Source: Bacteroidales bacterium
GTDB lineage: Bacteria > Bacteroidota > Bacteroidia > Bacteroidales > WCHB1-69
Assembly (NCBI GenBank): GCA_017551725.1
Contig: JAFZKY010000037.1
Location: 123,595 to 187,594 of the forward strand
Length of the DNA stretch: 64,000 bases
Direction: 5' to 3'
In this document: positions 46,353 to 63,535 of the stretch, in pieces
Layout: every line of letters begins with the position of its first letter
Numbering within the stretch: position 1 is the first letter of the stretch
Made by a program: the position numbers and the translations under genes
The notes under the pieces: model-generated
Database searches by the model: none
Told to the model about the DNA's origin: nothing
The model's input: only the letters and a program-made list of their open reading frames with translations

Positions 46353-47822
46353 GTGAAAATCATCAACCGTTATCTCTGTAAAAACTTTCTGGGGCCCTTC
46401 GCCCTCACTTTTTTCGTGGCCTTGTTTGTGCTACTGATGCAGTTTTTATGGAAATGGGTTGATGAATTAGTCGGCAAAGGATTGGAAATCAGCATCCTGC
46501 TAAAACTCCTCTTCTACGCATCCATCACCCTCACCTCCATGGCTTTCCCCTTGGCCGTGCTGCTGGCCTCTCTGATGACCTTCGGCAACATGGGCGAACG
46601 CTACGAGATTGTGGCGCTGAAATCCGCCGGTGTCCCCATCAGCAAGATGATGATGCCGCTGGCAATTCTGTCCCTCATCATCTCCGTGATCGCCTTCCTG
46701 TTTTCAAATGTGGCCATACCCAAGGCCAGCGTGAAACTCAGGATGATGCTGTTTGACATTCAGGAGCAAAAGCCGGCCCTGAACATCGAAGAAGGCGTGT
46801 TTTACACCGGATTGGACAACTATTCCATCCGCGTGGGCAAGAAGATGCCCGACGGAGAGAAAATCAAGGACGTCCTGATCTATGACCATTCCAGCCACCA
46901 GGGCAACACCACCGTCACATACGCCAAAGAGGGCGTGATGACGGTCACGCCGGACAAGCACTATCTGCTGTTCACCCTTTACGACGGTTCCTTCTGGGAC
47001 GAAAGTTCCAAATCCGGCATCCGCTCGGATGGCCGGATGCATTACCCGCTCACCCGTGCCACCTTTTCCAAACAGTACAAACGTTTCGACATGTCGAGTT
47101 TCGACATGGCCGAGGTGGACGAAAGCCTCTATCAAGGCCACTCCACTGCCATGTCCACCAAACAGCTCAACCATAAAATCGACACGCTGAAAAAGGAAAT
47201 CACGGGATTGGCCCACGGAGCCTCCCGGGTGTTCTTCAGCAGCCTTTATTTCTTCAACTGGCTGGTGAAGGAGGACAGCTGTTTCGACACCATGTCAAGA
47301 CAGCAGGCGTTGGATTTGACCACCCTCAGTCCCACCACACGTGAGCGCATGTTCCGCAATGCGGAAAACCAGGCAAATTCCTATATTTTCAACGTCAAAT
47401 TTGCGTATCAGGATATGGCCTTCCGCACATCCTACCTGTGGGGCTTCCAGATTGAATACCTGCGGAAGTTCACCTTGTCGATTGCCTGCCTGCTCTTCTT
47501 CTTCATCGGTGCCCCGCTGGGTTCCATCATCCGCAAAGGCGGCATCGGCATCCCGCTGGTCATCACCGTCGTTTTCTTCACCCTCTACTTCGCCATTTCG
47601 ATCATGGGTGAAAAGATAGCCAAAACCAGCGCCATGCCCGTATGGTTCGGCATGTGGCTCTCGTCCTTTGTCCTCATCCCCATCTGTGTTTTCCTGACAT
47701 ATCATGCCACCACGGACTCGGCCATTTTCTCGCCGGAAACCTATTCCAAGATGGTGGAAAAACTGAAAAAAATAAAATCATCCTTTATAAAACGTCATGA
47801 AGATTCTCCAACTGTGTCATAA
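46353..47822 (+). CDS. LptF/LptG (YjgP/YjgQ) family LPS export permease
   Basis: 489 aa with a GTG start. MKIINRYLCKNFLGPFALTFFVALFVLLMQFLW is the family N-terminus. The layout is three TM segments, a periplasmic beta-jellyroll-sized insert, then three TM segments. Confidence 0.85.
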   Translation: MKIINRYLCKNFLGPFALTFFVALFVLLMQFLWKWVDELVGKGLEISILLKLLFYASITLTSMAFPLAVLLASLMTFGNMGERYEIVALKSAGVPISKMMMPLAILSLIISVIAFLFSNVAIPKASVKLRMMLFDIQEQKPALNIEEGVFYTGLDNYSIRVGKKMPDGEKIKDVLIYDHSSHQGNTTVTYAKEGVMTVTPDKHYLLFTLYDGSFWDESSKSGIRSDGRMHYPLTRATFSKQYKRFDMSSFDMAEVDESLYQGHSTAMSTKQLNHKIDTLKKEITGLAHGASRVFFSSLYFFNWLVKEDSCFDTMSRQQALDLTTLSPTTRERMFRNAENQANSYIFNVKFAYQDMAFRTSYLWGFQIEYLRKFTLSIACLLFFFIGAPLGSIIRKGGIGIPLVITVVFFTLYFAISIMGEKIAKTSAMPVWFGMWLSSFVLIPICVFLTYHATTDSAIFSPETYSKMVEKLKKIKSSFIKRHEDSPTVS

Positions 47823-49005
47823 ACCGCCTTTACCTTTGATAGACGGCGGATGCATCGCCATTCACAACATCACGGACGGCCTCCTCAATAGTGGTCAGGA
47901 GGTCAAGGTGGTTGCGATTGAAACCCCCAAGCACCCCGTGAAGCTGGATGTCATGCCCAAAGAATACCTCCAAAAGACGTGCTTCGAATCGGTCTTCATC
48001 GACACCACTCCCCGTTTCCGTGATGCCCTCCGTGCGCTCCTGCACCGGCATCCCTACCAGATCAACCGTTTTTATTCCAAATCAATGGTTTCCAAACTGA
48101 TATGGATATTAGAGCATGAAACGTTTGACATTATCCATCTGGAATCCATCTATGTTACCCCTTATATTGAAACTATTCGGAAACACTCCCAAGCAAAAAT
48201 CATTCTCCGGCTGCACAATATTGAGCACCAGATCTGGCAACGTCTCGCCGATAACGAATCCTGGCCGTTGCACAAGCTGATATACAAGACCAACGCCCGC
48301 CAGCTGGAACGGGTGGAGAACAACATTCTGCAGCAGGTGGACGGCTATATGACCATCTCGGAACCCGACCACCGCTTTTTCCAGCAGACAGCCCCCGACG
48401 TGCCGGGCACCATCGTCACGTTTGGGTTGGATATGGAGAAATACGATAACGACGAGGATTTCATCCCTTCCGACGAGCCTTCCCTGTGCCATATCGGCAG
48501 CATGAACTGGTCGCCGAATATCGAAGGCGTGGAATGGTTCCTGGACGAGGTATGGCCGGAGATTCACCGCGCGCACCCCGCACTCACCTTCACGCTGGCC
48601 GGACACAGCATCCCCGACCGCCTCTACCAGCGTCACGATGAAAATGTCATCATCGCAGGGGAGGTGCCCGATGCCAACGAGTTCATCCTGTCGCACGACC
48701 TGATGATTGTGCCCCTGCTCTCCGGCAGCGGCATCCGCATCAAGATTGTGGAGGCGATGGCCCTCGGCCGTGTCGTCATCACCACCTCTGTGGGAGCCGA
48801 GGGAATGGATATCGAAGACGGAAAACATCTGTTTATCGCCAACACGCCCGATGAGTTCCTCAATATCATCAACAAGTGCATTGCCACGCCCGACCTTTGC
48901 ACCATCATCGGTGAAAACGCCCGCGACTTCATTGCCATGAACCACAACAATGATCTCATCACGGACCATATTCTTGATTTTTACCAAAACGTCACCGCAA
49001 AATAA
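47797..49005 (+). CDS. glycosyltransferase family 4
   Basis: 402 aa. MKILQLCHKPPLPLIDGG is a GT4 N-terminal domain start. The C-terminal E..(7)..E-type region is PLLSGSGIRIKIVEAMALGRVVITTSVGAEG. The stop TAA overlaps the dxs ATG by 1 nt. Confidence 0.8.
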   Translation: MKILQLCHKPPLPLIDGGCIAIHNITDGLLNSGQEVKVVAIETPKHPVKLDVMPKEYLQKTCFESVFIDTTPRFRDALRALLHRHPYQINRFYSKSMVSKLIWILEHETFDIIHLESIYVTPYIETIRKHSQAKIILRLHNIEHQIWQRLADNESWPLHKLIYKTNARQLERVENNILQQVDGYMTISEPDHRFFQQTAPDVPGTIVTFGLDMEKYDNDEDFIPSDEPSLCHIGSMNWSPNIEGVEWFLDEVWPEIHRAHPALTFTLAGHSIPDRLYQRHDENVIIAGEVPDANEFILSHDLMIVPLLSGSGIRIKIVEAMALGRVVITTSVGAEGMDIEDGKHLFIANTPDEFLNIINKCIATPDLCTIIGENARDFIAMNHNNDLITDHILDFYQNVTAK

Positions 49006-50921: not shown

Positions 50922-51923
50922 TTATCGGTTCGTCTTTACGGAAAAACTTTTGTTTAGCAAGACCTTGGCAATCCCGACCAGATAACCCCAACCGTAACTG
51001 ACATGAATGACCGGGAAAATTGCCATCAAAATGGGGACGATTTTGGGGTTGCGGGTGGATTTCAGGCTAAAAAGGAGGTCGGCAATAAGATAGAGAGCAA
51101 GAACGATCAGATATATGGCGAGGAATATGGGATGTACACAAGCAAGAATACCGCCGAATATCAATCCAAGGACAAAGCCCGGCGGGAAGAATTGCCGTAA
51201 GGTGGCCGGCTTGCCCAACTTTTTGTTTACCAATGGTTTGAAAAGCCCGTACTGGTAAAACATCTTGCTCACTTTGCCTATCGTGTCGCGGGCGTAGTAG
51301 TTGATGACAACGGACGGTATCAGGTATATTTTCCCGCCATTGCGGATGATTCTGCCGTTGAATTCATCATCCTGATTGCGCACCAGTTCTTCATCGAAAA
51401 AGCCGATTTTCTCGAAAATAGCCTTGCGGAAACAGCCGAAGGGCACCGTATCTACGGGCATCTCCCGGTCTGCGCCGATGCGGAAGTAGGAGTTGCCCAT
51501 ACCGAACGGCGAGCTGAGCGCGAAGGCGATGGCCTGGCACACTGGTGTGTCGTTGATTGGCAGTGTGCGGCACACGCCGCCCACGTTGTCGGCCCCGAGC
51601 GCGTTGAGCCGCTCGGTCAGGACCGAAAAATAGTTGTTCGGGTACTCCGCGTGCGCATCCAGGCGGATGATGATGTCGCCCTTGGCCACCCGGATGCCGA
51701 TGTTCAGCGCCACCGGCACAATCTTGTCGGGATTGTCCAACAGATGGATGAAAGGGTACCGCTCCGAAAACGCCTGCACCAGTTCCCGCGTGCGGTCTGT
51801 GCTCATGCCATCCACGAAGAGCACTTCCATATTCTCTTTCGGAAAGTCTTGAGCCAGAATGGATTCAATACATTTTTCAATGTATTTTTCTTCATTGTAA
51901 ATGGGACAGATGACGGAAATCAT
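50922..51923 (-). CDS. glycosyltransferase family 2 with C-terminal TM segments
   Basis: I prefer the start MISVICPIYNEEKYIEKCIESIL (ATG at 51923). VDGMSTD and RLDAHAEYP are the DxD/DxH-type GT2 motifs. The C-terminus has two or three TM helices. Confidence 0.8.
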   Translation of the reverse strand: MISVICPIYNEEKYIEKCIESILAQDFPKENMEVLFVDGMSTDRTRELVQAFSERYPFIHLLDNPDKIVPVALNIGIRVAKGDIIIRLDAHAEYPNNYFSVLTERLNALGADNVGGVCRTLPINDTPVCQAIAFALSSPFGMGNSYFRIGADREMPVDTVPFGCFRKAIFEKIGFFDEELVRNQDDEFNGRIIRNGGKIYLIPSVVINYYARDTIGKVSKMFYQYGLFKPLVNKKLGKPATLRQFFPPGFVLGLIFGGILACVHPIFLAIYLIVLALYLIADLLFSLKSTRNPKIVPILMAIFPVIHVSYGWGYLVGIAKVLLNKSFSVKTNR

Positions 51924-51928
51924 ACGGA

Positions 51929-54229
51929 TTAGGCTTTTGTCAGGATGTCTTGGTAAATGTTTTGGTAGGTGCGGGCAATGTCCGACCAATCGAATATGCG
52001 GAACCGTTCGGCGGACAATGTCTGATAGTCTTCCGGGTGGGTGAGCAGTTTGCGCAGGGCCTCCCGGATAGAGTCGGTAGAGTTGGGATTAACGCTTTCA
52101 CCTACCGTTTCTTCAAAAAGTCCGTCAATGCCTTCGTTTTTCGTGTAAAGCACAGACAATCCCTGGGACAAGGCCTCCACGTACACCAATCCGAAGGTCT
52201 CGTGGATGGAGGGCATTGCGAAGACACTGTTTTCTTTATACAGTTTTTGTAAAATATCTTTGTCGAAAATGCGTCCGTGGTAGGTGATGATGTCGGGATG
52301 GACATTCACCTGATCCAGAACCTTTTGTTCACACTCGCCCGTACCGCCTACCAGGTTGAGGTGTATGTCGGGGATGTCGTTTTTGAGTTGCAAAACAGCA
52401 TCCATAAGCCGCAGCACATTTTTATTATGGTCGAAATTGCCCACGAAGACGACAGAATGGTTCTTGCCATGCTGCTGCGGGTCGGGATGAAATGCCGACA
52501 ACCAGTAGTCGTTCAGTCCGTTGGAGATAACCACGCTTTTATCACTAAGTATAGACTTCATGCCTACGAGAGTCGGGTGTTTTGTCAAACGTTGTTGCAG
52601 CATCGGGGTGATGAAGACCACCTTTTCCGCCTCGCGGATGACGGCGCGGTGTACCCACCACAGATGGGGCGTGTATTTCAGGAAGGCATTGAGGTCGCTG
52701 TTGCGCACGGCCACGATGTAGGGGATGCCGTACTGCCGTTTCAGTCGCAAGGCCACAGCTCCGTCGCTGAACAGGTTGGTGGCATGTGCGCACGCCACCT
52801 CGTCCAGGTTCACCTGCTTGGCGATATCTTTTCCGATTTTGTCGATTTTACGGTTGAAAAACAACCGGTGCAACGGTTTCAGAATAAAGGAATAGATAAT
52901 GCGGGTATGCTCTCCCTCAAAGGCGTTTTGGTCAGTGAGTGATTCGTTTCGTATGGGGGAGTAAACAATCTGTTGAACGCCCTGTTGGTCAAGGTGCTGG
53001 TATAATTCCGTATGCACCTTGCTGTAGGTAAAGTCGTTGCTGATATGCAGTACGGTATTGCCGTGTGCGTCGCGGGCAGGCGCCTGCTGGTATTGGCGGA
53101 ACGTGGCCCCGAGGAGCAGGAAGGCCATCATCTGCACCGAGCCGGGCCCGTAGGGGAAGTTGGGTTCCACGAAGCTGACAATCAAGGGTATCATGCAGGC
53201 CACGAAGCCCACATCGCGCAGGGCGGTGCGCCGCTCCCGGAACAGTGCCACGATGGTCCGGATGCCGAAATAGAGATAGAACGCCACCAACGGGAACGAC
53301 CAGATGCCATAGCGCACCATGCGCAGCAGGATATAGTTGTGAATGATCAAAATGCCGGAAGACTCCTCCTGTTCGCCATGCAGCGGGTCTTTGAGGAAGA
53401 ACTCCAGACCCTGCTGGTTGCGTTCCCAACGGTTGGAGGTCAGCACGTCGATGTCGGAGGAGGACTTTCCGCCAACCATAAAACGTGTCAGCTCGTCGCT
53501 GATGAATCCTACATATATTATATAGGCAATCAGAAGGATGCCGAGAACGGTGAGAATGTTCTTCAAACTGGGCCGCCATTCCCAGTGGATATCTTTGACG
53601 GAGAGGAACAATGCACATGCCAGCAACGCGAAGCAGTCGGAGCGGGCACGGATGAGCACGAGCAAAAGCAGGGTGAGAAGGAAAAGAACCAGAAAGTGTG
53701 TGCGTTGTTGGGGCATTTTTAACGCAAAGAAGTACATGACGGCACCCGCGATGGCCACCATGCCGCCAATCTGGTTTTTGCCTTCGTCCAGCATATAATG
53801 CTCCGGCACGATGAGGTTGCCCGCCCAGAAAAAGCAGTTGATGACACACATGACGATAAGCCCCAGCGTGTAATAGTAGGCCACATCGGCCCATTGCCGC
53901 ATGTCCCAGTCCAAGGTCATGCCGATGCAGATGCACAGGCACGCTACCACCAGCTGCGACAGGTCGGCGGGACGGAACCGCTGGCCAAGCAGTTTGAACA
54001 CGGCGAACTCCACCGCCACGATGAGGATGGTGGCGAAAAACAGACGCACAAACCGTTCGGAACAGTAGGTCTCGAGGGAAAAAGTCAACACGAAGGCGGC
54101 AGCCATGCACGCCATGATGACGTAGCGCAGGATGTAGTACGTGACCGTCAGGTAAACCCACGGCAGGTAGGAGGCGATGACCATCCCCAGCGTGGCAAGT
54201 AGCAAATATTTGGCGATTTTATTTTTCAT
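51929..54229 (-). CDS. fusion protein: O-antigen ligase/polymerase-like (Wzy_C) membrane domain + GT4 glycosyltransferase domain
   Basis: 766 aa. The N-terminal roughly 390 aa are polytopic, with Wzy_C-like motifs (LIRARSDCFALL; IIHNYILLRMVRYGIWSF). The C-terminal roughly 370 aa are GT4-like (NVLRLMDAV.., FAMPSIHETFGLVYVEALSQGLSVLYT). Confidence 0.7.
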   Translation of the reverse strand: MKNKIAKYLLLATLGMVIASYLPWVYLTVTYYILRYVIMACMAAAFVLTFSLETYCSERFVRLFFATILIVAVEFAVFKLLGQRFRPADLSQLVVACLCICIGMTLDWDMRQWADVAYYYTLGLIVMCVINCFFWAGNLIVPEHYMLDEGKNQIGGMVAIAGAVMYFFALKMPQQRTHFLVLFLLTLLLLVLIRARSDCFALLACALFLSVKDIHWEWRPSLKNILTVLGILLIAYIIYVGFISDELTRFMVGGKSSSDIDVLTSNRWERNQQGLEFFLKDPLHGEQEESSGILIIHNYILLRMVRYGIWSFPLVAFYLYFGIRTIVALFRERRTALRDVGFVACMIPLIVSFVEPNFPYGPGSVQMMAFLLLGATFRQYQQAPARDAHGNTVLHISNDFTYSKVHTELYQHLDQQGVQQIVYSPIRNESLTDQNAFEGEHTRIIYSFILKPLHRLFFNRKIDKIGKDIAKQVNLDEVACAHATNLFSDGAVALRLKRQYGIPYIVAVRNSDLNAFLKYTPHLWWVHRAVIREAEKVVFITPMLQQRLTKHPTLVGMKSILSDKSVVISNGLNDYWLSAFHPDPQQHGKNHSVVFVGNFDHNKNVLRLMDAVLQLKNDIPDIHLNLVGGTGECEQKVLDQVNVHPDIITYHGRIFDKDILQKLYKENSVFAMPSIHETFGLVYVEALSQGLSVLYTKNEGIDGLFEETVGESVNPNSTDSIREALRKLLTHPEDYQTLSAERFRIFDWSDIARTYQNIYQDILTKA

Positions 54230-54239
54230 TACGGTAAAA

Positions 54240-55136
54240 TTAACGAGTGTTGATGGAAGGCAGGGTTATCTTTTGGCCAAACAATAAATCGGTTGAGGGC
54301 AGCCGGCCTTTGTCGAAGCCGCCGGCAGGCGTGAAGGTGAGCTCTCCGAAATAGGCTTTGCCTTTTTCCAGATAAAAATCGGCCCGCACGAACGGGAAAG
54401 GCTTGGAAAGTATCTCCGCATAATCGAAGAGCGCATCCATGCCGTCGGGTTTGGGCAAGGTGAAGCCCTCAGGAGCTTCGAGGCCCTGCCGGTTCAGCCG
54501 TTGCAACTCCCACTCGCGATTGAAAAAGTAGAAGTCTGGCTTCTGCTGGTGCCCGCGCCCGAAGCAGCACAGCACATATTCGGGTTTTCCATTGAAACAG
54601 TAAATCTTATAGTCCACGGGCGAAGAGCCGTCTTCCGTCTCGATGAACTGCTCACAAAGGATGCGTTTCTCAGGGAAGTTGTATTGCGGCTCGGCGGCGA
54701 TGAGGTGGAATTTGATTTTCTCGAAACGGTCCAAATCACGGATGGTGGCGGGGATGTCGAGCTTTGTCTTGTCGGGGCAGATGACGTTGCCGCCGCAGCC
54801 GAAGTTCCACTTCAGCACGAATTTGTCCGGCAGCGTCTCCCAGTTGATTTCCGACGCATGGGCATAGACGGCATGGAGCGGGTTGAGGATGTGCTCCAGC
54901 CCACATTCCGCCACGTAGTCCCGCACGCGGAGCTTGTCGGCGCAGCGTTCTACCAGCGCATTGTCCTTGTAGTAATAGAGTTTCATCCACTGGATTTTCT
55001 CATCCAAGGTCTGCGGGTCCTCCAGATTCAGCCGCTTGCGATGATATATGCGGAAAAGCGTTTTGACGCTCCATTTGGGCGACAGGGAGGTCAACGCATA
55101 ACGCATTAACAAATTGGGTATTGATCGAAATTCCAT
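54240..55136 (-). CDS. ATP-grasp amidoligase, TupA-like family
   Basis: 298 aa. LDEKIQWMKLY, DKLRVRDYV, FVLKWNFGCGGNVIC, DYKIYCFNGKPEYV, FVRADFY and YFGELTFTPAGG follow my recollection of the TupA-like ATP-grasp family (the teichuronopeptide type). Confidence 0.7.
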   Translation of the reverse strand: MEFRSIPNLLMRYALTSLSPKWSVKTLFRIYHRKRLNLEDPQTLDEKIQWMKLYYYKDNALVERCADKLRVRDYVAECGLEHILNPLHAVYAHASEINWETLPDKFVLKWNFGCGGNVICPDKTKLDIPATIRDLDRFEKIKFHLIAAEPQYNFPEKRILCEQFIETEDGSSPVDYKIYCFNGKPEYVLCCFGRGHQQKPDFYFFNREWELQRLNRQGLEAPEGFTLPKPDGMDALFDYAEILSKPFPFVRADFYLEKGKAYFGELTFTPAGGFDKGRLPSTDLLFGQKITLPSINTR

Positions 55137-55148
55137 GATGCGGGTTTT

Positions 55149-56231
55149 CTACCAGTAACTGTGTCTGGTATTTCGGTTTTTATAAATCTCCTTCAAAAAT
55201 TCCTCCGGATTCTCACCAAAGGCAGGTCCGTATGCCGACTGGCTCAGGTCGGGGTCGGCGTTCCACTCGATGAAGACGGGCTCGCCCTGCTCGCCCACGG
55301 CGAAGTCCCAGGCGGCGATATTGAAGTGGGGCAAGCGGAGATGCAGCCGTTTGGCGGTCTCCACCACCTCAGGAAAGGACGGGATGGCATAGCCGTCGAG
55401 GGTGATGCCGCTGTCGGTCTTCTCCACCATGTCGTAGCCCGGCGCGCCGAAGGCGTAGCGTCCCAGCGTGCCGTCGGGACGGATCAGCGTGCTGATGCCG
55501 CCGGCGCTCTCGTTGTCGATCACCTGGCCGGCACGCCCGATACGGATCACAGCATAGATCAGCCGCACCTCCATGTCGTGGCGGTAGGTGAGCAGACGGA
55601 TGGTGTTCACGGAGGCCGGGTTGAGGGCCGCCATACGCTCGTGCTGATGCACGGCCTCCTGCAGGATGAAGTCGCGCTCGTATTCGTCGAAGAGCTGCTC
55701 GATGCGCTTGCCCTTGCGGTCGGTGACCCCGTCCTGGACGCGGAGGCGCATGACTCCCTCGCCGCGTGTCAGCAGGGAGGGCTTCAGGATGGCCTCGTCA
55801 AGGTTCTGGCAACGGGCTATGGCCTCCTCGCGACTGATGGCCTTTCCGTCGGCGTAGAAATGATGGTTGATGTTCTTGATAAACGTCTTGGGCTGGATGA
55901 CGTCGGGGAAAAGCTCCTCTGACACGTTCTTGTCGGCATAGGCATCCTTGAATGGGAAGTTGTTCATCCGCCCGATCATCTCCGAGCGGTAAACGCCCAC
56001 GGGGATGTAGTAGGGCGAGTAGTTGCCGGTGCGCGAGTAGAGGAACTTGTGCCATATCAGCGGCACGCGCCGCCCGATGGCCCGGCGGTAGAAAGCCTGT
56101 ATTTCCCGCTTCTGCTGCCGCGTGAGCTTGCGCTTGATCTTCAGCTGGCGGTATTTTTTCCATATCTCGTAATGGAACGAGAATTCCAATACGATCTTCT
56201 TGATTTTGGAAGTGGTTCTCAAACTTTTCAT
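55149..56231 (-). CDS. sugar-transfer-associated ATP-grasp family protein
   Basis: 360 aa. ILKPSLLTRGEGV, ILQEAVHQHERMAALNPASVNTIRLLT, IGRAGQVIDNESAGGIS and AAWDFAVGEQGEPVFIEWNA fit the ATP-grasp fold family that is found next to glycosyltransferases. Confidence 0.65.
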   Translation of the reverse strand: MKSLRTTSKIKKIVLEFSFHYEIWKKYRQLKIKRKLTRQQKREIQAFYRRAIGRRVPLIWHKFLYSRTGNYSPYYIPVGVYRSEMIGRMNNFPFKDAYADKNVSEELFPDVIQPKTFIKNINHHFYADGKAISREEAIARCQNLDEAILKPSLLTRGEGVMRLRVQDGVTDRKGKRIEQLFDEYERDFILQEAVHQHERMAALNPASVNTIRLLTYRHDMEVRLIYAVIRIGRAGQVIDNESAGGISTLIRPDGTLGRYAFGAPGYDMVEKTDSGITLDGYAIPSFPEVVETAKRLHLRLPHFNIAAWDFAVGEQGEPVFIEWNADPDLSQSAYGPAFGENPEEFLKEIYKNRNTRHSYW

Positions 56232-56236
56232 AGCGT

Positions 56237-57361
56237 TTATTTTTTCAAAGATTGTATGAGAAGATTTCTTCTGGCATCGTTTTTCAGCAACATAAGCAGA
56301 CTCTTGTGTGAATCAGATGTGCGTCCTGTCAGGATGCGGATGCATTTTTTTGCCAATGTGCGTACTCTTCGGCGGAACGGCTGGCGGGTATGGAAGCGCT
56401 CGATAATGGGGTATTCTTGCTCCTCCGCCAGCTTCTTGACGGCAGCATCAAGGTATTGCCCATAAGCTTCAGGCTCCTGCAAATAGCGACATATTTGCTC
56501 GTTATGCTGTTGGCGAGCCTCGCTGTTATCCAACGAAAGCTCCCGGTTGGCCCGGTTCAAGGTGTTTACCGTTTCAAAGGAAATCTGGCCGTCGCAGATA
56601 TTGCCGATGACGCACAACCCTTCGTACCAGTGCGGCTTGTCGGCCTTGAAATCCGGTGTGGTCTTGCTGTTGAAGAAGAAATTGCCCAGACTGTAGAAGA
56701 TGGTCTTGCCCTTGTAGGTCTCCCACCCTTGCGGGCAGTGCGGGTGCGTGCCGATGACGGCGTCGGCTCCGTAGTCGATGAGGTCGCGGTAGCGGGCAAT
56801 GGTCTCCGGCATCGGCACGTCGATGTATTCGATGCCATCGTGCGGCAGGACGAACAGGAAGTCCACCTCCTTTTTTGCGGCCATGATGTCGTGGTTCACC
56901 CGCAGGTCGTTGAGGTAGGCACATCCAAGGCCCTCGTGGTGCCGCACATCGTCGAAGACACCTTTCTGTGCCGCGTAGCTCAATGCCATGAAGCCAATCT
57001 TCACCCCCTTCACGTCTACGATTTTCACCCGGTAGGCTTCTTCGTATGTACCAGAGCCAAAGGTTTTTCCTTCCAACGCCGCAACCGTTTTGCGGAAGCC
57101 TTCATCCCCGCAGTCAAAGGCATGGTTGTTGGCCATGGAGAATAGATCGAAACCCAAGCTCTTGAGGAAGGCGGGCGCATCGTCGTTCTGGAAAAACGTC
57201 ACATTGTGCAATGCCGGCTCCGGCATCAAGGGTATCTCGAAGTTGACAACACGCAAATCGCAACTTTCCAACAGGGCTCTCAACTCCCCGGATACGGAAA
57301 TGTGGTCGGTAGAGGGTTTGGAGCAGAAGTCTCCGGCGAAAAAGATTCGGATGTTTTCCAT
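56237..57361 (-). CDS. CapA-family (PGA_cap, metallophosphatase-like) protein
   Basis: 374 aa. FAGDF, MANNHAFDCG, VLPHDGIEY and IGTHPHCPQGWE follow the CapA/poly-gamma-glutamate capsule family pattern. Confidence 0.75.
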   Translation of the reverse strand: MENIRIFFAGDFCSKPSTDHISVSGELRALLESCDLRVVNFEIPLMPEPALHNVTFFQNDDAPAFLKSLGFDLFSMANNHAFDCGDEGFRKTVAALEGKTFGSGTYEEAYRVKIVDVKGVKIGFMALSYAAQKGVFDDVRHHEGLGCAYLNDLRVNHDIMAAKKEVDFLFVLPHDGIEYIDVPMPETIARYRDLIDYGADAVIGTHPHCPQGWETYKGKTIFYSLGNFFFNSKTTPDFKADKPHWYEGLCVIGNICDGQISFETVNTLNRANRELSLDNSEARQQHNEQICRYLQEPEAYGQYLDAAVKKLAEEQEYPIIERFHTRQPFRRRVRTLAKKCIRILTGRTSDSHKSLLMLLKNDARRNLLIQSLKK

Positions 57362-57370
57362 ATTGGCGGG

Positions 57371-58852
57371 TTATGCAGGTTCTTGTTGGTGGCGGTTTTT
57401 AAAACGGGAGAAGAGATCGCGGGCAATCTCCACAAAGTTGTTGAACGCCCGCAGCCGGAGCAGATAGGACATTCCGATATAGATAATCAGGAAGATGAGG
57501 AGTTGGATGCAGGCCAGCGGATACATGCTTAAATGAATAAATCGGGCGCAGTAGAAGCTTATAATAAAAGCGCAGATTCCCACAATGGCGATGGGCAACA
57601 GGTCCAGAAATTGCGTATGGAGGCGATACCCCACATGCTTGTGTACCAAAGCGGCGTTGATGATGTAGATGGTGTAGGAGGTGATGACCATACCGGCCAG
57701 CAACCCGTCCATTCCGAAGGCGGCCAACCCGCCCACCACAAGCACCAGTCCGATGCCACGCTTGATGAGAGTCCACAACAGCAGCTTGCCGCTCTTGCCC
57801 ACAGCAGCCACGGCATAATAGTTGATGCCCTGCAAACTGATGGCAATGCCCGCGATGCACAATATCTGGAAATAGTGAACCGACGGCAGCCATTTGGCAG
57901 AGTAGATGAGGATAATCAGCGGCTTGGCAACCAGGATGAACAACAACATCAACGGGATGGTCAGATAGGCCAGCGAGGTGATGAACTGGCTCAGCATGTG
58001 GATCATGCGGGGCTTGTCGTTCTGCGATTCTGCCAAAATGGGATAGGCCACACGGTCCACCACGTTGGAGATGCTGGTGGACGACAACTCCTCCAGCTTT
58101 TTCCCTTGGGAGTAATAACCCATGGTAGAGGAATTGTATATTTTACCTATCAACAACCCTTGGATATTGTTGCAGAAGGTGTTGACTAAATTGGCCAGCA
58201 GAATAAAAAAACCGAAGTTGAACAACTCCTTGAAGGATGTCCAAGAGAAAACAAGGCGCGGATGCCACCGACCCACAATCCACAGAAGCAGGGTGGAGAT
58301 GGAGCATAATAGCAGTTGCTGCGCCACCAACGCCCAGATGCCCCAGCCCTTAGCGGCAAGCAGTATCGTGATGGATATGGACACGATGGCGGAGATGATG
58401 TCGATAATGGCTAACTTTTTGAATTGCAACTGCTTCCGCAATCGGTTGTTTTGGATAATGCTCAAAGCGTTGATGATGAGCACCAAGCCCTCCACACGAA
58501 GAACGGCGGAGAGCAACGGGATATCGTAGAAGCGGGCTATGACAGGGGCTGTAACATACAGAATGCCATAGAGTAGCCCTGACAACAGCAGATTCCAGTA
58601 GAAAATAGTGGAATAATCTTCATCGGTGGGATCCTTTTTCTGGATGAGTGCCGAACCGAACCCGCCGTCGATGAAAGTGCTGGACAGGGTGATGAAGATG
58701 GCCAGCATCCCGATGCAACCGAAATCGTCAGGCGAGAGCAGTCGGGCCAGCACGATGTTGGCCACGAAGGAGATGGCCATGGCGCCGAATTTCTGGAAGG
58801 CGCTCCAGAAGACACCCGATATGGTTTTGGATTTCAGACTGCCCTGTGCCAT
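57371..58852 (-). CDS. Wzx-type oligosaccharide/polysaccharide flippase (MOP superfamily)
   Basis: 493 aa with about 14 TM segments. The N-terminus SLKSKTISGVFWSAFQKFGAMAISFVANIVLARLLSPDDFG is typical of polysaccharide biosynthesis flippases. Confidence 0.8.
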   Translation of the reverse strand: MAQGSLKSKTISGVFWSAFQKFGAMAISFVANIVLARLLSPDDFGCIGMLAIFITLSSTFIDGGFGSALIQKKDPTDEDYSTIFYWNLLLSGLLYGILYVTAPVIARFYDIPLLSAVLRVEGLVLIINALSIIQNNRLRKQLQFKKLAIIDIISAIVSISITILLAAKGWGIWALVAQQLLLCSISTLLLWIVGRWHPRLVFSWTSFKELFNFGFFILLANLVNTFCNNIQGLLIGKIYNSSTMGYYSQGKKLEELSSTSISNVVDRVAYPILAESQNDKPRMIHMLSQFITSLAYLTIPLMLLFILVAKPLIILIYSAKWLPSVHYFQILCIAGIAISLQGINYYAVAAVGKSGKLLLWTLIKRGIGLVLVVGGLAAFGMDGLLAGMVITSYTIYIINAALVHKHVGYRLHTQFLDLLPIAIVGICAFIISFYCARFIHLSMYPLACIQLLIFLIIYIGMSYLLRLRAFNNFVEIARDLFSRFKNRHQQEPA

Positions 58853-58861
58853 GATGCGATG

Positions 58862-60070
58862 CTATTTTTCATCAGCGAAAAATTGGAGATAGGCGAAATG
58901 CGGCGTGAGCACCCCGTTTTTAAGGATAGTGCCCCGTTGCACCACTTCGTTGTGGATGCCGGAGAGCAGCCCGGGAAGCACATGTTGCATGAGCATGTCG
59001 CCGAAATGGGCGCTGGTGTCCAATGCCAGGGCGTTGGGACAGGTGTCCACGGCCATCACGGTGATGTTGTTTTCATTAGAGAAAGCGGGTTCCTCAAGGC
59101 CGGTGGCAGGGTTGTAGTCGTAATAGGGCGCTTCGTGGGTGGCAGGCCGCAGCGTGGAACGGATGCTGCCCTGTATGTCGCAGGTGATGTCACCAATGAA
59201 TCGGATGCGCAGATCCTCGGCCCGCAAGTCCTCTTCGGAGAGATAAACGGGAGCCTCGGGAGTCCAGAAATGGCCGCAGAGCAGCACGTCGGCCTGCCGT
59301 GCCCACTTGTGGAAATCGCTGCGGTATGCCTGCGGGTTCTTCGTGAAGTGATCCCATGAGAATGTGCCGCCGTCACAGCGGGCCACCAGCCGGTCGGCGT
59401 CGGCCACGGTGTAGGTGAGACGGTCCACCGCGGGCGTGGAGAGGAACGTGTGTTCGTCCACACGCACAGCCCCGATTTTGTCCAGAATGAACTGTGCCCC
59501 CTGCGACACGCGCCCGTTGCCCGTCACCAACAATTTTATTTTCGGGAGAGTGATAGAAGATAGATTTTCCACCAACATTTCCATGGTAAAACGGCGGTCT
59601 GGCTTGGGGAGCGTGTATAGATGATGGCGCAGGCCGTAGCCGCGCAGGGTGTAGTAGGTGCCCACCACGCCGGCCCACCATCCGAACGCACACACGCGCC
59701 GGTTTTGCTCGTCCACCAAATACTCGTAGTCCGTGAAGGTGATGTGCTTGGCCATCAGAGTCTGCAGCAGCGGACGGTTGTAAGCCTGCATCTTGGCAAA
59801 ATGGCCAAAGAAAATGTAATGCTTGTCCGGCAGCAGGGCGTTTATATCCACCTCTTTGATTCCGAAAAGAATGTCGCAGTCCTGAACATCCTCCACCACG
59901 GGAATGTCGGCCTGCCGGTACTCCTCATCGGTGAAAGCACGGACAGGGCTGGTCTGCACCACGAACTGATGCTGCGGATATTGTCGCTGCAGATCGGCCA
60001 TCTGGACGGGCGACAGAGCCACACGGCTGTCGGCAGGAGTCTTGGTCTCTCTGATAAGTCCGATTTTCAT
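58862..60070 (-). CDS. alanine dehydrogenase/PNT-fold oxidoreductase, saccharopine (lysine-oxoglutarate) dehydrogenase-like
   Basis: 402 aa. MKIGLIRETKTPADSRVALSP, CDILFGIKEV and LVTGNGRVSQGA (Rossmann) resemble the LKR/saccharopine dehydrogenase and AlaDH N-terminal architecture. Confidence 0.55.
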   Translation of the reverse strand: MKIGLIRETKTPADSRVALSPVQMADLQRQYPQHQFVVQTSPVRAFTDEEYRQADIPVVEDVQDCDILFGIKEVDINALLPDKHYIFFGHFAKMQAYNRPLLQTLMAKHITFTDYEYLVDEQNRRVCAFGWWAGVVGTYYTLRGYGLRHHLYTLPKPDRRFTMEMLVENLSSITLPKIKLLVTGNGRVSQGAQFILDKIGAVRVDEHTFLSTPAVDRLTYTVADADRLVARCDGGTFSWDHFTKNPQAYRSDFHKWARQADVLLCGHFWTPEAPVYLSEEDLRAEDLRIRFIGDITCDIQGSIRSTLRPATHEAPYYDYNPATGLEEPAFSNENNITVMAVDTCPNALALDTSAHFGDMLMQHVLPGLLSGIHNEVVQRGTILKNGVLTPHFAYLQFFADEK

Positions 60071-60112
60071 ATTGTAGGAAAGTATATTTTTACCCTATTT
60101 TAATATAGGGTG

Positions 60113-60120
60113 CAAAAATA
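60113..60120 (-). promoter_or_regulatory. -7 promoter box (TATTTTTG) for the 60070-50922 operon
   Basis: The reverse complement of caaaaata matches TAnnTTTG, 43 nt upstream of the start at 60070. Confidence 0.5.
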
Positions 60121-60158: not shown

Positions 60159-60209
60159 CAATCTCATTTATTGCAAAAATAATTTATTAAAAATCAATAT
60201 TTTACCAAT

Positions 60210-61910
60210 ATGAAACAGTTAATCGAATGTGTTCCTAACTTTAGTGAAGGCAAAAATCAAGACATCATCAACCAGGTGGCCGACGTAATCCGTCAGGCCG
60301 AGGGCGTCACACTGCTGGATGTGGACCCGGGTGCCACCACCAACCGCACCGTGGTCACGTTTGTGGGCACTCCCGATGCCGTGGTGGATGCCGCTTTTGC
60401 GCTCATCGCCAAATGCAAAGAGCTGATAGACATGCGTTATCATCACGGTGACCATCCCCGTTTCGGTGCCACGGACGTGTGTCCGTTTGTGCCGGTGGCC
60501 AACATCACCATGGAAGAGACGGCGGAATACGCCCGCAAGTTGGCCAAGAAGGTAGGTGAAGAATTGCAGATTCCGGTTTACTGTTATGAGAATGCCGCCT
60601 TTGAGGAGAAACGCCGCAACCTAGCCAACTGCCGCCAGGGCGAATACGAGGCCCTGAAAGAGCGCATCACCACCAAGGAGTGGAAGCCCGACTTTGGTCC
60701 CAACAAGTTCACGGAGAGTGTGGCCAAGAGCGGTGCCACCGCCATCGGCGCCCGCGACTTCCTCATCGCCGTCAACTACAACCTGAACACCACCTCCACG
60801 CGCCGCGCCAACGCCATCGCCTTCGACGTGCGCGAGAAGGGCCGCCCGAAGCGTGAGGGCAACCCCATCACCGGCAAGAAGGTGCTGGACGAGAAGGGCA
60901 ACCCGGTCATGATCCCCGGCACGCTCAAGGGCACCAAGGCCATCGGCTGGTACATCGCCGAGTACGGTGTCGCCCAGGTCTCCATGAACATCACCAACAC
61001 CAACCTCACCCCGTTGCACGTGGCCTTTGACGAGGTGTGCGACAAGGCGGCCAAGCGGGGCGTGCGCGTCACCGGCACGGAAATTGTGGGTCTCGTGCCC
61101 AAGAAAACCCTCATCGACGCGGGCAACCACTATCTGGCCAAACAGCACCGCTCCCTCGGCATCGATGAGCGCGAGAAGGTGAAAATCGCCGTCAAGTCCA
61201 TGGGCTTGGATGACCTCAAACCCTTCAATCCGGATGAGAAAGTGATTGAATACTTGCTTGAAAAAGAGGATACTACACCCAAGTTGGTGGACATGACCTG
61301 CACGGGTTTCGCCAATGAGACGGCCTCCGAAAGTCCGGCCCCCGGCGGCGGCTCCATTTCCGCCTACATGGGAGCCCTGGGCGCCGCCCTCGGCACGATG
61401 GTCGCCAACCTCTCCTCCCATAAGCCGGGCTGGGATGCCAAGTGGGAATATTATTCCCAATGGGCTGAAAAAGGCCAAGCCCTCAAAGACACGCTGCTGG
61501 CCCTCGTGGATGAGGATACCAACGCCTTCAACGTGATTATGAACGCCTTCGGTATGCCGAAAGGCACGCCTGAAGAGAAAGAGGCGCGTTCGCAGGCCAT
61601 CCAGGATGCCACCAAGTACGCCACCGAAGTGCCTATGCGCACCATCGAGACCTCCTTCAAGGTGTTCGAGATCTGCGAGGCAATGATCAAGAAGGGCAAC
61701 CCCGCCAGCGTGTCCGACGCGGGCGTGGGCGTACTCTGTGCGCGTGCAGCCGTCCACGGCGCCTACCTCAACGTCAAAATCAACGCCTCCTCGCTGAAAG
61801 ACAAAGCGTGGGCCGAGATGATGATCACCAAGGCGCACGACTACGTGATGAAAGCCGACCGCATCGAAAAGAGACTGATGAGGTTGACGGAGAAGGTGAT
61901 CGGTGAATAG
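60210..61910 (+). CDS. ftcD: bifunctional glutamate formimidoyltransferase / formimidoyltetrahydrofolate cyclodeaminase
   Basis: 566 aa. MKQLIECVPNFSEGKN is the hallmark start of the formiminotransferase domain. The C-terminal roughly 200 aa are helical and cyclodeaminase-like (GGGSISAYMGALGAALGTMVANLS). Confidence 0.9.
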   Translation: MKQLIECVPNFSEGKNQDIINQVADVIRQAEGVTLLDVDPGATTNRTVVTFVGTPDAVVDAAFALIAKCKELIDMRYHHGDHPRFGATDVCPFVPVANITMEETAEYARKLAKKVGEELQIPVYCYENAAFEEKRRNLANCRQGEYEALKERITTKEWKPDFGPNKFTESVAKSGATAIGARDFLIAVNYNLNTTSTRRANAIAFDVREKGRPKREGNPITGKKVLDEKGNPVMIPGTLKGTKAIGWYIAEYGVAQVSMNITNTNLTPLHVAFDEVCDKAAKRGVRVTGTEIVGLVPKKTLIDAGNHYLAKQHRSLGIDEREKVKIAVKSMGLDDLKPFNPDEKVIEYLLEKEDTTPKLVDMTCTGFANETASESPAPGGGSISAYMGALGAALGTMVANLSSHKPGWDAKWEYYSQWAEKGQALKDTLLALVDEDTNAFNVIMNAFGMPKGTPEEKEARSQAIQDATKYATEVPMRTIETSFKVFEICEAMIKKGNPASVSDAGVGVLCARAAVHGAYLNVKINASSLKDKAWAEMMITKAHDYVMKADRIEKRLMRLTEKVIGE

Positions 61911-61955: not shown

Positions 61956-62312
61956 ATGATAAAGAACTATAGAGAGTTGATTGTATGGCAGAAGGCTATG
62001 GAAATGGTGGAGAATATCTATACCTTGACCCAGTCGTTACCCAAAGATGAGTTGTTTTCCATAACTAATCAAATACGACGTGCAGCAATATCAGTACCTT
62101 CTAATATAGCAGAAGGATATGGGCGACAATCGAAAAAAGAATATCTGCAATTTCTATCAATAGCCAATGGCTCCGTATGCGAAATCGAAACCCAGTTATT
62201 GTTGTGTCTAAGAATTGGTTATCTAACAGAAGAAAACACAAAAGAGACCTTTCAATTACTTTCCGAAATTGGAAAAATAATAACAACAATCAAACAAAAA
62301 CTCAAAACATAA
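61956..62312 (+). CDS. four-helix-bundle protein (23S rRNA intervening-sequence protein / Avd-like family)
   Basis: 118 aa. The sequence LIVWQKAMEMVENIYTLTQSLPKDELFSITNQIRRAAISVPSNIAEGYGRQSKKEYLQFLSIANGSVCEIETQLLL matches the family signature (W.ka..l...iy.....P..E.....Q.rRaa.Si..NIAEG..r.s..e...fl.iA.GS..E..t.l). The gene is visibly AT-rich compared with its neighbours. Confidence 0.9.
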   Translation: MIKNYRELIVWQKAMEMVENIYTLTQSLPKDELFSITNQIRRAAISVPSNIAEGYGRQSKKEYLQFLSIANGSVCEIETQLLLCLRIGYLTEENTKETFQLLSEIGKIITTIKQKLKT

Positions 62313-62371: not shown

Positions 62372-63535
62372 ATGAAACTATTAATGGTCCTCTCGCGCTT
62401 CCCGTATCCCCTTGAGAAGGGGGACAAGCTGCGTGCGTACCATCAGATTCGTTGCCTGTCGGAACAACATGAGATATTCCTGGCCGCCATGCACGACAAG
62501 CCGGTGACCGACGAGGACCTGCGCCAGCTGGAGCCTTTCTGCAAGGAGATCTTTCTTTTGGACAATAATCACCTTAAACGCTGCTGGAACATGGGCAGGG
62601 CTTTCTTCAAGGGCCTGCCCATCCAGTGCGGACTTTTCTACAACAAGACCAATGCGCGACGGCTGGAGGAGATTGTCCAAAAGGTGCAACCCGACCATAT
62701 CTACTGCCAACTCTTCCGGATGGCGGAATACGTGAAGACCATGCCCCTGCCCAAAACGCTTGACTATCAGGATGTCTTCTCCAAAGGCATGGCGCGGCGG
62801 GCCGAGAACGCCCGTGGACTGAAAAGGGCCCTCTTCCGCATGGAGGCCCGCCGCGTGGCACGCTATGAGGAGCACCTCTTCGACCTTTTTGACCATACGA
62901 CCATCATCACCGCCGTGGACCGCGACCTCATCCCCCACCCGCGCAACCGCGAGATTGCAGTGGTGCCCAACGGTGTGGACTTCGACCAATTCACCTATCA
63001 TGGCGAGACCAAATCGTATGATCTGATTTTCTCGGGCAATATGGGATATGCCCCCAATGTGGATGCCGCCGAATACCTGGCTACGGAAATCTTGCCCCCG
63101 CTACTGGAGGGATTTCCCGACATGAAACTGGTGCTGGTTGGGGCTAACCCCTCCGCAAGGGTGCGCGCCCTGCGCAACGAACACGTCATCGTGACCGGCT
63201 GGGTGGACACGATGGCCGACTGGTATGCCCAATCCAAGGTCTTCATCGCCCCGATGCGCATGGGCACGGGACTGCAAAACAAACTGCTGGAAGCCATGTC
63301 CATGCAACTGCCCTGCGTCACATCCCCATTAGCCGCCAAACCTCTGTCCGGAGCCGAAACTGAAAACGCCGTCTGCGTATGCCATAACACCCACGACTAT
63401 GTGGAAGCCATCCGCCAACTTTTGCGGAATGAAGAGGCATACCGACAGCTGGCCGCCGCCGGCCACCGCTTCGTGCACGAGCATTACGACTGGCAAAATG
63501 CCACAGACAAACTGTTGCAAATCATCGCCCAATAA
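62372..63535 (+). CDS. glycosyltransferase family 4
   Basis: 387 aa. MKLLMVLSRFPYPLEKGDKLRAYHQI is a GT4 N-terminal domain. The C-terminal part is FIAPMRMGTGLQNKLLEAMSMQLPCVTS. Confidence 0.8.
   Translation: MKLLMVLSRFPYPLEKGDKLRAYHQIRCLSEQHEIFLAAMHDKPVTDEDLRQLEPFCKEIFLLDNNHLKRCWNMGRAFFKGLPIQCGLFYNKTNARRLEEIVQKVQPDHIYCQLFRMAEYVKTMPLPKTLDYQDVFSKGMARRAENARGLKRALFRMEARRVARYEEHLFDLFDHTTIITAVDRDLIPHPRNREIAVVPNGVDFDQFTYHGETKSYDLIFSGNMGYAPNVDAAEYLATEILPPLLEGFPDMKLVLVGANPSARVRALRNEHVIVTGWVDTMADWYAQSKVFIAPMRMGTGLQNKLLEAMSMQLPCVTSPLAAKPLSGAETENAVCVCHNTHDYVEAIRQLLRNEEAYRQLAAAGHRFVHEHYDWQNATDKLLQIIAQ

Follow-up and report, generated by a model that had tools for sequence, protein, structure and literature searches.

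An operon of uncultured Bacteroidales with a conserved Wzy-like::GT4 fusion, predicted to serve the synthesis of an amino-acid-decorated surface polysaccharide

Attachment of amino acids to uronic acids via an amide bond has long been known in surface polysaccharides of Proteus, Providencia, E. coli, Klebsiella and others (PMC10609480), and in the O14 antigen of Providencia rustigianii the residue amide-linked to galacturonic acid is N-epsilon-(1-carboxyethyl)-lysine (PMC10609480). TupA-like genes, such as WemR of Proteus, have been linked to the decoration of surface polysaccharides with amino acids (PMC13419641), and the sole biochemically characterised TupA-like domain that we found, Cj1438C of Campylobacter jejuni, amidates glucuronic acid at its C6 carboxylate (PMC11800379). 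In Bacteroides, an ATP-grasp protein is encoded in one phase-variable capsule locus (CPS/PVR) of B. intestinalis (PMC12118408), and LFG loci of Bacteroidota have been described as carrying wzx at one end, a variable middle, and two conserved glycosyltransferases (GT-B and GT2) at the other. Here we analyse a stretch of 64,000 nucleotides from contig JAFZKY010000037.1 of a Bacteroidales bacterium (the whole stretch is called the window below), and in it a set of seven genes on the minus strand, at 50922-60070, that looks like an operon related to these systems.

We suggest that this operon probably accounts for the late steps in synthesis of a Wzx/Wzy-type, undecaprenyl-linked surface polysaccharide, in which a uronic acid bears an amide-linked amino acid or short peptide. 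Such a polysaccharide could be O-antigen-like, capsule-like or 'common-antigen'-like, and its amide substituent is possibly an opine-type lysine derivative. The class of chemistry is already known and a TupA-like amidoligase is already characterised; a previous sequence-only reading of this DNA had spoken of a hybrid glycopeptide polymer undescribed for Bacteroidales capsules, and as a new kind this has to be withdrawn in view of the long known amino-acid uronamides (PMC10609480) and of ATP-grasp proteins in Bacteroides capsule loci (PMC12118408). What is new is a Wzy-like::GT4 fusion that is conserved, an organisation into core and cassette that extends across an uncultured clade, the evidence that places an LKR-like or octopine-dehydrogenase-like enzyme in such loci, and the pairing of an ATPgrasp_ST ligase with a soluble CapA-like enzyme.

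The operon and its predicted pathway

The features of the operon are given below in the direction of reading; the domain calls are those of Pfam, and all assigned domains exceed the gathering scores.

60174-60181, minus strand: second TATTTTTG box, found by motif scan within the same 139-nt intergenic region as the next one
60113-60120, minus strand: -7 promoter box TATTTTTG, a match to the Bacteroidetes-type consensus TAnnTTTG, 43 nt 5' of the first ATG
58862-60070, minus strand: gene 1, LKR/saccharopine-dehydrogenase-like oxidoreductase of the AlaDH superfamily, predicted to be opine-forming (AlaDh_PNT_N, 1.9e-19)
57371-58852, minus strand: gene 2, Wzx-type MOP flippase (Polysacc_synt_3, 1.6e-94)
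56237-57361, minus strand: gene 3, CapA-like protein of metallophosphatase fold, cytoplasmic, part of the variable cassette (PGA_cap, 2.1e-48)
55149-56231, minus strand: gene 4, ATPgrasp_ST amidoligase, part of the variable cassette (PF14397, 5.1e-35, 121.5 bits with a cut-off of 31.4)
54240-55136, minus strand: gene 5, TupA-like ATP-grasp amidoligase, part of the conserved core (PF14305, 6.9e-34)
51929-54229, minus strand: gene 6, Wzy-like::GT4 fusion of 766 aa with two domains
53060-54229, minus strand: N-terminal domain of gene 6, residues 1-390, a multi-helix membrane domain with WaaL/Wzy fold according to the structure model and relatives
51929-53047, minus strand: C-terminal domain of gene 6, residues ~395-766, GT4 (GT-B), predicted to be cytoplasmic (Glycos_transf_1, 4.3e-21; Glyco_transf_4, 1.8e-9)
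50922-51923, minus strand: gene 7, GT2 of 333 aa with a hydrophobic C-terminal tail (Glycos_transf_2, 2.7e-29)

The seven open reading frames (ORFs) are separated by 9, 9, 5, 12, 10 and 5 nt, which on re-measurement are the gaps given by the sequence-only reading, with the start of gene 7 being the ATG at 51923 (the mechanical ORF list begins at an upstream TTG, 51989, and overlaps gene 6). The consensus TAnnTTTG has 11 matches on the minus strand of the whole 64-kb window, two of them in the 139-nt upstream region and none inside the operon, so the single upstream box proposed before has to be replaced by two (60120-60113 and 60181-60174). Because the gaps are of 5-12 nt and promoter-type boxes lie only upstream, the spacing and the conserved order of the seven genes fit one transcription unit. 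Intrinsic-terminator-like sites in the region number 19, against 12.2 +/- 3.7 in shuffles, which is not a clear enrichment. On the 5' side the operon is divergent from ftcD (60210-61910, plus strand), confirmed as the formimidoyltransferase-cyclodeaminase gene that it had been taken for, and on the 3' side it converges with dxs, the stop codon of which is 18 nt from gene 7.

The predicted chemistry depends in the first place on the ligases. The product of gene 5 scores 117.9 bits with ATPgrasp_TupA (cut-off 25) and covers profile positions 1-240 of 241; a metagenome-assembled genome of a 'Bacteroidales bacterium' encodes a protein that is 100% identical to it over the length they share. Sequence searches of the PDB with the TupA-like and the ATPgrasp_ST proteins returned chance matches only. 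The sequence-only reading had made its case hang on these two ATP-grasp profiles, and both pass, as do Polysacc_synt_3, PGA_cap, Glycos_transf_2 and AlaDh_PNT_N, which bear out its calls of Wzx, a CapA-family protein, a GT2 and an AlaDH-like enzyme. By its family, and in analogy with Cj1438C, the protein of gene 5 is predicted to amidate a uronic acid carboxylate. Because Cj1438C amidates the C6 carboxylate of glucuronic acid, a uronic-acid polysaccharide decorated with amino acids or peptides would be the best reading of the locus, and the earlier proposal of amide-linked substituents is retained on the same analogy.

It would be logical to picture the pathway in the following way. Enzymes encoded elsewhere, an initiating phosphoglycosyltransferase and a UDP-sugar 6-dehydrogenase, would start the lipid-linked unit and supply the uronic acid, to which the cytoplasmic GT4 domain and the GT2 would add backbone sugars, their families being clear and their acceptors presumed. 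The TupA-like ligase would join the C6 carboxylate of the uronic acid to an amine, the ATPgrasp_ST ligase may append a further residue, and the soluble CapA-like metalloenzyme may process the side chain, with epimerisation, as in MslH, as one option. Gene 1 would make or modify the amino-acid moiety by condensing an amine and a 2-oxo acid reductively, as the comparative evidence discussed below indicates, and its product may be an opine-type residue such as N-epsilon-carboxyalkyl-lysine. Wzx would then flip the unit, and the WaaL/Wzy-fold domain would polymerise it at the periplasmic face, ligation to an acceptor being less likely. The lipid-linked repeat-unit route that had been read from the sequence agrees with the presence of Wzx, of a WaaL/Wzy-fold domain and of two glycosyltransferases.

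Compared with the described systems, the locus falls by prediction in the class of the O-antigens of Proteus, Providencia and E. coli and the capsules of Klebsiella, that is, Wzx/Wzy polysaccharides with an amino-acid uronamide. An opine-type lysine substituent is documented in this class (Providencia rustigianii O14) and the TupA-like WemR is a candidate ligase there, but these bacteria are of another phylum, and here an LKR-like or octopine-dehydrogenase-like gene is found within the operon; we found no paper that assigns such a gene to the enterobacterial amidated structures. The additional genes for ATPgrasp_ST and the CapA-like protein hint at side chains of more than one residue in comparison with the Proteus and Providencia type. 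In the HS:2/HS:19 strains of Campylobacter jejuni, Cj1438 unites a GT2 domain with a TupA-like amidoligase domain, whereas here the ligase is separate and the fusion is that of a polymerase-like domain with GT4. The amine used by Cj1438 is ethanolamine or serinol phosphate, and its likeness to the operon is one of family and description. The Campylobacter capsule is ABC-transporter-dependent, and our operon, unlike that system, possesses Wzx and a Wzy-like domain. With the teichuronic acid (tuaABCDEFGH) and teichuronopeptide systems of Bacillus it shares a set of flippase, Wzy-like polymerase, GT4, GT2 and TupA-type ligase, but it has no equivalent of TuaA, TuaD or TuaF, belongs to a Gram-negative host, and carries the polymerase and GT4 as one protein; the NCBIfam matches to TuaB, TuaC and TuaG reach 194, 60 and 46 bits with cut-offs of 580, 550 and 400.

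A conserved core and a variable cassette

One genome per species was scanned for relatives of the locus, window proteins being mapped onto the loci with our own gene calls and clustering. The fusion was found in 50 loci, plus one locus with a separate C-terminal fragment (L049), and all 50 belong to uncultured Bacteroidales of rumen, hindgut or faeces, with 49-92% identity of the fusion over its full length. A TupA-like gene lies 5' of the fusion in each of the 50 loci (in four of them with the CapA-like gene inserted between), the GT2 follows it in 39, and Wzx is found within 10 kb upstream in 33, or in 34 when the window is counted. In some genomes the trio stands behind unrelated genes with no Wzx nearby. 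L011 and L006 repeat the exact order of the seven genes; in L010 it is the same except that gene 1 is lacking, and in L007 and L014 further genes are inserted between Wzx and CapA. The stretch from Wzx to TupA is empty in L027-L044, and elsewhere it is occupied by one or two ATPgrasp_ST paralogues, by the CapA-like gene, or by a 249-aa acyltransferase-like protein.

The TupA-like ligase, the Wzy-like::GT4 fusion and the GT2 are then the conserved core, and the rest are interchangeable decoration modules, so that comparative genomics does not bear out the previous view of the seven genes as one cassette and a fixed unit. Identities to the window, four near-identical loci (L001-L004) being excluded, are 65-82% for TupA, mostly 61-74% for GT2 (44-56% in four loci) and 49-68% for the fusion, with 75-81% for dxs. 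Since the divergence of the core genes is close to that of the flanking dxs, the core looks like one inherited vertically as a conserved function, unlike a hypervariable capsule locus. In this respect it differs from the CPS/PVR loci of Bacteroides, which are of the same order of bacteria and of Wzx/Wzy type. The window also differs from these in lacking UpxY/UpxZ, Wza/Wzc-type export and an initiating transferase: there is no UpxY/UpxZ regulator at the 5' end, where the first gene is LKR-like, and no NusG/KOW-type protein among the scanned window ORFs. The absence of an initiating phosphoglycosyltransferase, Wza/Wzc and UpxY, remarked for the operon by the sequence-only reading, extends to scans of the whole window.

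Two further genes accompany the module in certain loci. A conserved 249-aa protein is encoded directly after Wzx, overlapping its stop by 4 nt, in L002-L005, L007, L009, L046 and L048; it has no Pfam match, and its sequence resembles a hexapeptide-repeat (left-handed beta-helix) acyltransferase. In L011, L014, L017 and L019 an aminotransferase of DegT/DnrJ/EryC1 type directly follows GT2, again with a 4-nt overlap of the stop, and its family points to an amino sugar in some of the variant backbones.

The cassette of the window consists of genes 3 and 4. In the CapA-like protein GD, NNH and HPH motifs are readable, and inspection of the sequence shows no hydrophobic N-terminal membrane anchor. 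Among solved structures its sequence matches three near-identical chains, which carry the deposited name 'poly-gamma-glutamate synthesis protein' (8gq9; 9e-10, over residues 192-235 only), and there is a local NCBIfam match to the model of the lasso-peptide epimerase MslH, far below its cut-off. The gene is present in about 10 of the 50 related loci and always together with ATPgrasp_ST, which itself has zero to two copies in the 50 loci and three in the more distant L053; the second ATPgrasp_ST paralogue of the related loci (c7) matches its profile with 129.5 bits. In one genome from goat reticulum (L006, 6866-9082) the two are one ORF of 738 aa, which is either a natural fusion or an assembly error and, if real, ties the CapA-like and ATPgrasp_ST proteins together functionally. 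From these sequence features it is plausible that the CapA-like protein processes the amino-acid side chain, possibly by epimerisation.

A different use of the same genes would be the construction of a polymer of poly-gamma-glutamate or teichuronopeptide type, where the ATP-grasp enzymes and CapA build a polyamino-acid chain that is joined to the glycan afterwards. The PGA_cap domain, found at 2.1e-48, is that of CapA/PgsA-type proteins of the poly-gamma-glutamate system, the family name TupA derives from teichuronopeptide synthesis, the secondary NCBIfam matches of Wzx, GT4 and GT2 are to TuaB, TuaC and TuaG, and in L053 a Mur-ligase-family gene stands beside PGA_cap and five ATP-grasp genes. 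However, among the seven genes Pfam detects neither the CapB/PgsB (Mur-ligase-type) nor the CapC/PgsC partner, and the window has a single Mur-ligase gene, a MurF-alanine racemase-type fusion at a distance of 30 kb. An N-terminal anchor is lacking in the CapA-like protein, which is missing together with ATPgrasp_ST from most related loci while the core persists, and all the Tua matches are far below the cut-offs. We give such a polymer very little probability, and the link of CapA to poly-gamma-glutamate systems made by the sequence-only reading, with no CapB/CapC partner and no anchor, is a weak one.

The membrane domain of the fusion

Of the two halves of gene 6, the GT4 one is straightforward, with Glycos_transf_1 and Glyco_transf_4 found on residues 407-739 as had been expected. 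For the N-terminal membrane domain, a profile search of PDB sequences gave no match, and we turned to its modelled structure and to its relatives. The AlphaFold2 model, built from 15 aligned relatives, has a pLDDT of 78, a pTM of 0.81 and about 12 long helices, and Foldseek comparison of it with the PDB yielded the O-antigen ligase WaaL (7tpg_B) as the sole significant match (E 5.8e-6, probability 1.0, TM 0.64), all others having E >0.5. A profile search among 1.8 billion representatives found 404 relatives of the domain, nearly all of them standalone proteins of 380-410 aa; out of ten sampled, eight match Wzy_C weakly, one of these exceeding the cut-off. As the model indicates, the domain belongs to the O-antigen ligase/polymerase fold class. 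The name 'Wzy-like' given to this half earlier is in this way sustained by the WaaL fold and by the weak Wzy_C matches of relatives, and it is not sustained by the Wzy_C profile itself, which fails on gene 6.

Locus context of the relatives favours a polymerase. L053 has TupA-like, Wzy-like (387 aa), GT4 (376 aa) and GT2 genes in this order, followed by an acetyltransferase, a deacetylase and a Bac_transf initiating transferase, and preceded upstream by a Mur-ligase-family gene, another TupA-like gene, PGA_cap and three ATPgrasp_ST genes; it is the arrangement of the window in unfused form. L055 is an ordinary polysaccharide locus that includes a UDP-sugar dehydrogenase, and there a standalone relative is flanked by a flippase and a GT4. 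It is because standalone relatives occupy the expected polymerase position in these Wzx/Wzy loci that the role of polymerase is favoured here, and the fusion with GT4 is a trait derived within one clade. When the membrane domain was compared by profile with the Wzy_C protein of a further polysaccharide locus, L059, no relationship emerged (probability 1.4%), and such proteins are too divergent for this comparison to be informative. A lysine-rich N-terminus, a basic loop (residues 332-336) and a WaaL-like layout suggest that the C-terminus of gene 6, hence the GT4 domain, is cytoplasmic; on this modelled layout the invariant R267, R270 and H297 would face the periplasm.

Since the fold match is to WaaL, one may suppose instead that a ligase attaches a short, unpolymerised, amino-acid-decorated oligosaccharide to lipid A-core, as an outer-core decoration or a single O-unit. 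With this would agree the presence of only two glycosyltransferases, the lack of a chain-length regulator or exporter, the conservation of the module in the clade, as expected of a core-oligosaccharide function, and the vicinity, with conserved synteny, of an LptF/G permease gene and a further GT4 gene 2-5 kb away. The context of the standalone relatives, however, speaks for a polymerase, and no heptosyl- or Kdo-transferase genes are adjacent. As WaaL was the only member of the fold class matched in the PDB search, a ligase as the best match says little on activity. We consider attachment to lipid A-core unlikely.

The WaaL match can be turned towards protein O-glycosylation as well. The LFG loci of Bacteroidota have by description the same outline as our locus (wzx, variable genes, then GT-B and GT2), occur in single copy and keep a conserved position; in a counterpart of these, Wzx would flip an outer oligosaccharide, and a WaaL-fold ligase or oligosaccharyltransferase would attach the glycan to a core O-glycan or to proteins. 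The ends of our locus are conserved, its genomic position is conserved and it is single-copy, unlike typical variable capsule loci; structurally, the membrane domain has a ligase as its sole significant match, and the best NCBIfam model for gene 2, which besides Polysacc_synt_3 matches Polysacc_synt (7.8e-39), is Oglyco_Wzx (NF058658). Nevertheless, the Oglyco_Wzx score of gene 2 is 304 bits with a cut-off of 720, so the flippase does not qualify as an orthologous O-glycosylation Wzx, and flippases of ordinary polysaccharide loci (L057 and L059) score about the same, 283-297 bits. The match is unspecific for this reason, and this lowered our estimate of the whole idea. Directly 5' of wzx, where LFG loci of Bacteroides-type organisation have metG, the window has the LKR-like gene and divergent ftcD; LFG loci are not described with a WaaL/Wzy-like gene or with ATP-grasp ligases; standalone relatives of the membrane domain occur in classical Wzx/Wzy loci with Bac_transf or sugar-nucleotide genes; and the terminal GT2 has 333 aa with a membrane tail, compared to 255 aa in GtfE of T. 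forsythia. A mechanism of the LFG kind is distinctly improbable in our estimation. If the locus were the LFG equivalent of this clade, which is very unlikely, the fusion would identify the missing enzyme family for the whole phylum.

As to the GT2 of gene 7, a GtrB-like branch with an undecaprenyl-phosphate sugar was considered and dropped, its PDB matches being generic GT2 with no specific GtrB/ArnC similarity.

Gene 1, remaining objections and significance

The sequence-only reading gave gene 1 no role, and it is among the more informative parts of the operon. Among solved structures its sequence comes closest to the LKR domain of human AASS (8e8u; 4e-30, residues 16-398), with yeast saccharopine dehydrogenase second (6e-13, residues 7-149), so that it is similar over full length to characterised LKR/SDH enzymes. 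LKR/saccharopine dehydrogenases join an amine and a 2-oxo acid reductively. Three homologues with 66-67% identity are embedded, each, in a large polysaccharide locus: in L057 after rmlBCDA and before Wzx, PGA_cap and two ATPgrasp_ST genes; in L058 amid a Bac_transf transferase, GT4, ATP-grasp genes and acyl-carrier genes; in L059 after UDP-sugar dehydrogenases and before Wzx, a TupA-like gene, the Wzy_C protein, GT4 and a second TupA-like gene. This embedding speaks against a chance housekeeping neighbour, and we take gene 1 to be a genuine glycan-locus gene.

The slot directly 5' of Wzx adds to this. Among the 34 Wzx loci, the window counted, it holds an LKR-like gene in 19, an octopine-dehydrogenase-like gene in six, another gene in one, and is without a gene of this kind in eight; 25 of the 34 thus have one of the two dehydrogenases. 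The six loci are otherwise syntenic with their neighbours, and their gene is the following.

~6500-7600 in L027, L036, L038, L041, L042 and L044, directly 5' of Wzx: Octopine_DH-family gene of 359-360 aa (Pfam 3e-31), in the place taken by the LKR-like gene in sister loci

Its best solved relative is N-(1-carboxyethyl)-norvaline dehydrogenase (CENDH; 1bg6, 5.6e-26), and its exchange for the LKR-like gene is a non-orthologous replacement between two opine-forming enzyme families. As the two have unrelated folds and share both the reaction type and the gene slot, a common role in making an opine-type amino-acid substituent would be the best explanation, as far as sequence comparison goes. On opine dehydrogenases in gene clusters for polysaccharides a search of the literature had no relevant result, and broad homologue searches with the TupA-like and the LKR-like proteins listed close, uncultured relatives only.

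One may still ask whether gene 1 is an unrelated housekeeping enzyme of lysine catabolism that merely stands upstream of a glycan system of six genes. No other gene of the set is as well conserved as gene 1 (61-72% identity across the clade), its homologues at E<=1e-20 number >1300, it adjoins ftcD, a gene of amino-acid catabolism, and it is absent from some related loci. Against this, only 9 nt separate it from Wzx, homologues of it are found well inside three large polysaccharide loci that are unrelated, and an opine dehydrogenase of a different fold family takes the same slot in six loci. A housekeeping role is very improbable; it concerns gene 1 only, and is compatible with the other alternatives considered above. 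Apart from this question, a histidine ammonia-lyase-type gene (28283-29779, plus strand) and ftcD (60210-61910, plus strand) are 30 kb apart, the histidine-utilisation genes being scattered in the window.

A number of points weigh against an amino-acid-decorated Wzx/Wzy polysaccharide as the product of the operon. Neither in the operon nor in the 64-kb window did Pfam scans and tblastn with two Bac_transf proteins reveal an initiating phosphoglycosyltransferase; a dedicated search and Pfam scans of the window found no UDP-sugar 6-dehydrogenase, so the uronic acid is assumed; and the scanned window ORFs hold no Wzz-, Wzc- or Wza-type domain. Residues 1-390 of gene 6 have no Pfam match even at E<=10, Wzy_C included, and the model places the domain at the level of fold or superfamily only, in a fold common to polymerase and ligase. 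Typical Wzy proteins vary greatly between strains, and the membrane domain of gene 6 is conserved across the whole clade. In about 16 related loci the core, as trio or pair, has no Wzx within 10 kb. The opine idea rests only on two enzyme families that share reaction type and slot, and eight of the Wzx loci carry neither an LKR-like nor an Octopine_DH gene. Finally, every relative is a metagenome-assembled genome.

Other genes of the window may be mentioned briefly. At 19933-22335 (minus strand) a Mur ligase middle domain and a complete alanine racemase are joined in one protein of 800 aa (MurF-Alr-type fusion), and its gene adjoins those of a WbpM/PglF-like Polysacc_synt_2 dehydratase (17965-19896) and a GFO/IDH/MocA oxidoreductase (17003-17968); the latter two could be suppliers of modified sugar nucleotides. 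On the other side of dxs, an LptF/LptG-family permease gene in 46353-49005 (plus strand) overlaps the start of a GT4-like gene (47797-49005) which runs into dxs, and about 12 related loci have this LptF/G-GT4-dxs block in conserved synteny with the glycan core. Another GT4-like gene, similar to the first, is found at 62372-63535, and between it and ftcD is that of a '23S rRNA-intervening sequence protein' (61956-62312, plus strand; four-helix-bundle, bAvd-like). A radical SAM/SPASM protein is encoded at 5113-6186 (plus strand), and a Fibrobacter succinogenes major domain protein, which fits a rumen origin, at 8523-9959 (plus strand).

If the proposed amino-acid-decorated polysaccharide is real, a clade of uncultured rumen and hindgut Bacteroidales, represented by 50 species-level genomes, shares a conserved surface glycan, whose backbone machinery is fixed and whose amino-acid or peptide side chains are swapped via small ligase cassettes. 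The natural Wzy-like::GT4 fusion offers a handle on the coupling of repeat-unit completion with polymerisation or ligation, and the slot shared by the LKR-like and Octopine_DH genes gives a genetic candidate for opine-type polysaccharide substituents, for which we found no gene assignment in the literature searched. ATPgrasp_ST together with the soluble CapA-like protein makes a set of uncharacterised enzymes with a defined context. In that case, surface charge, antigenicity and phage recognition of abundant rumen bacteria would depend on these decorations.

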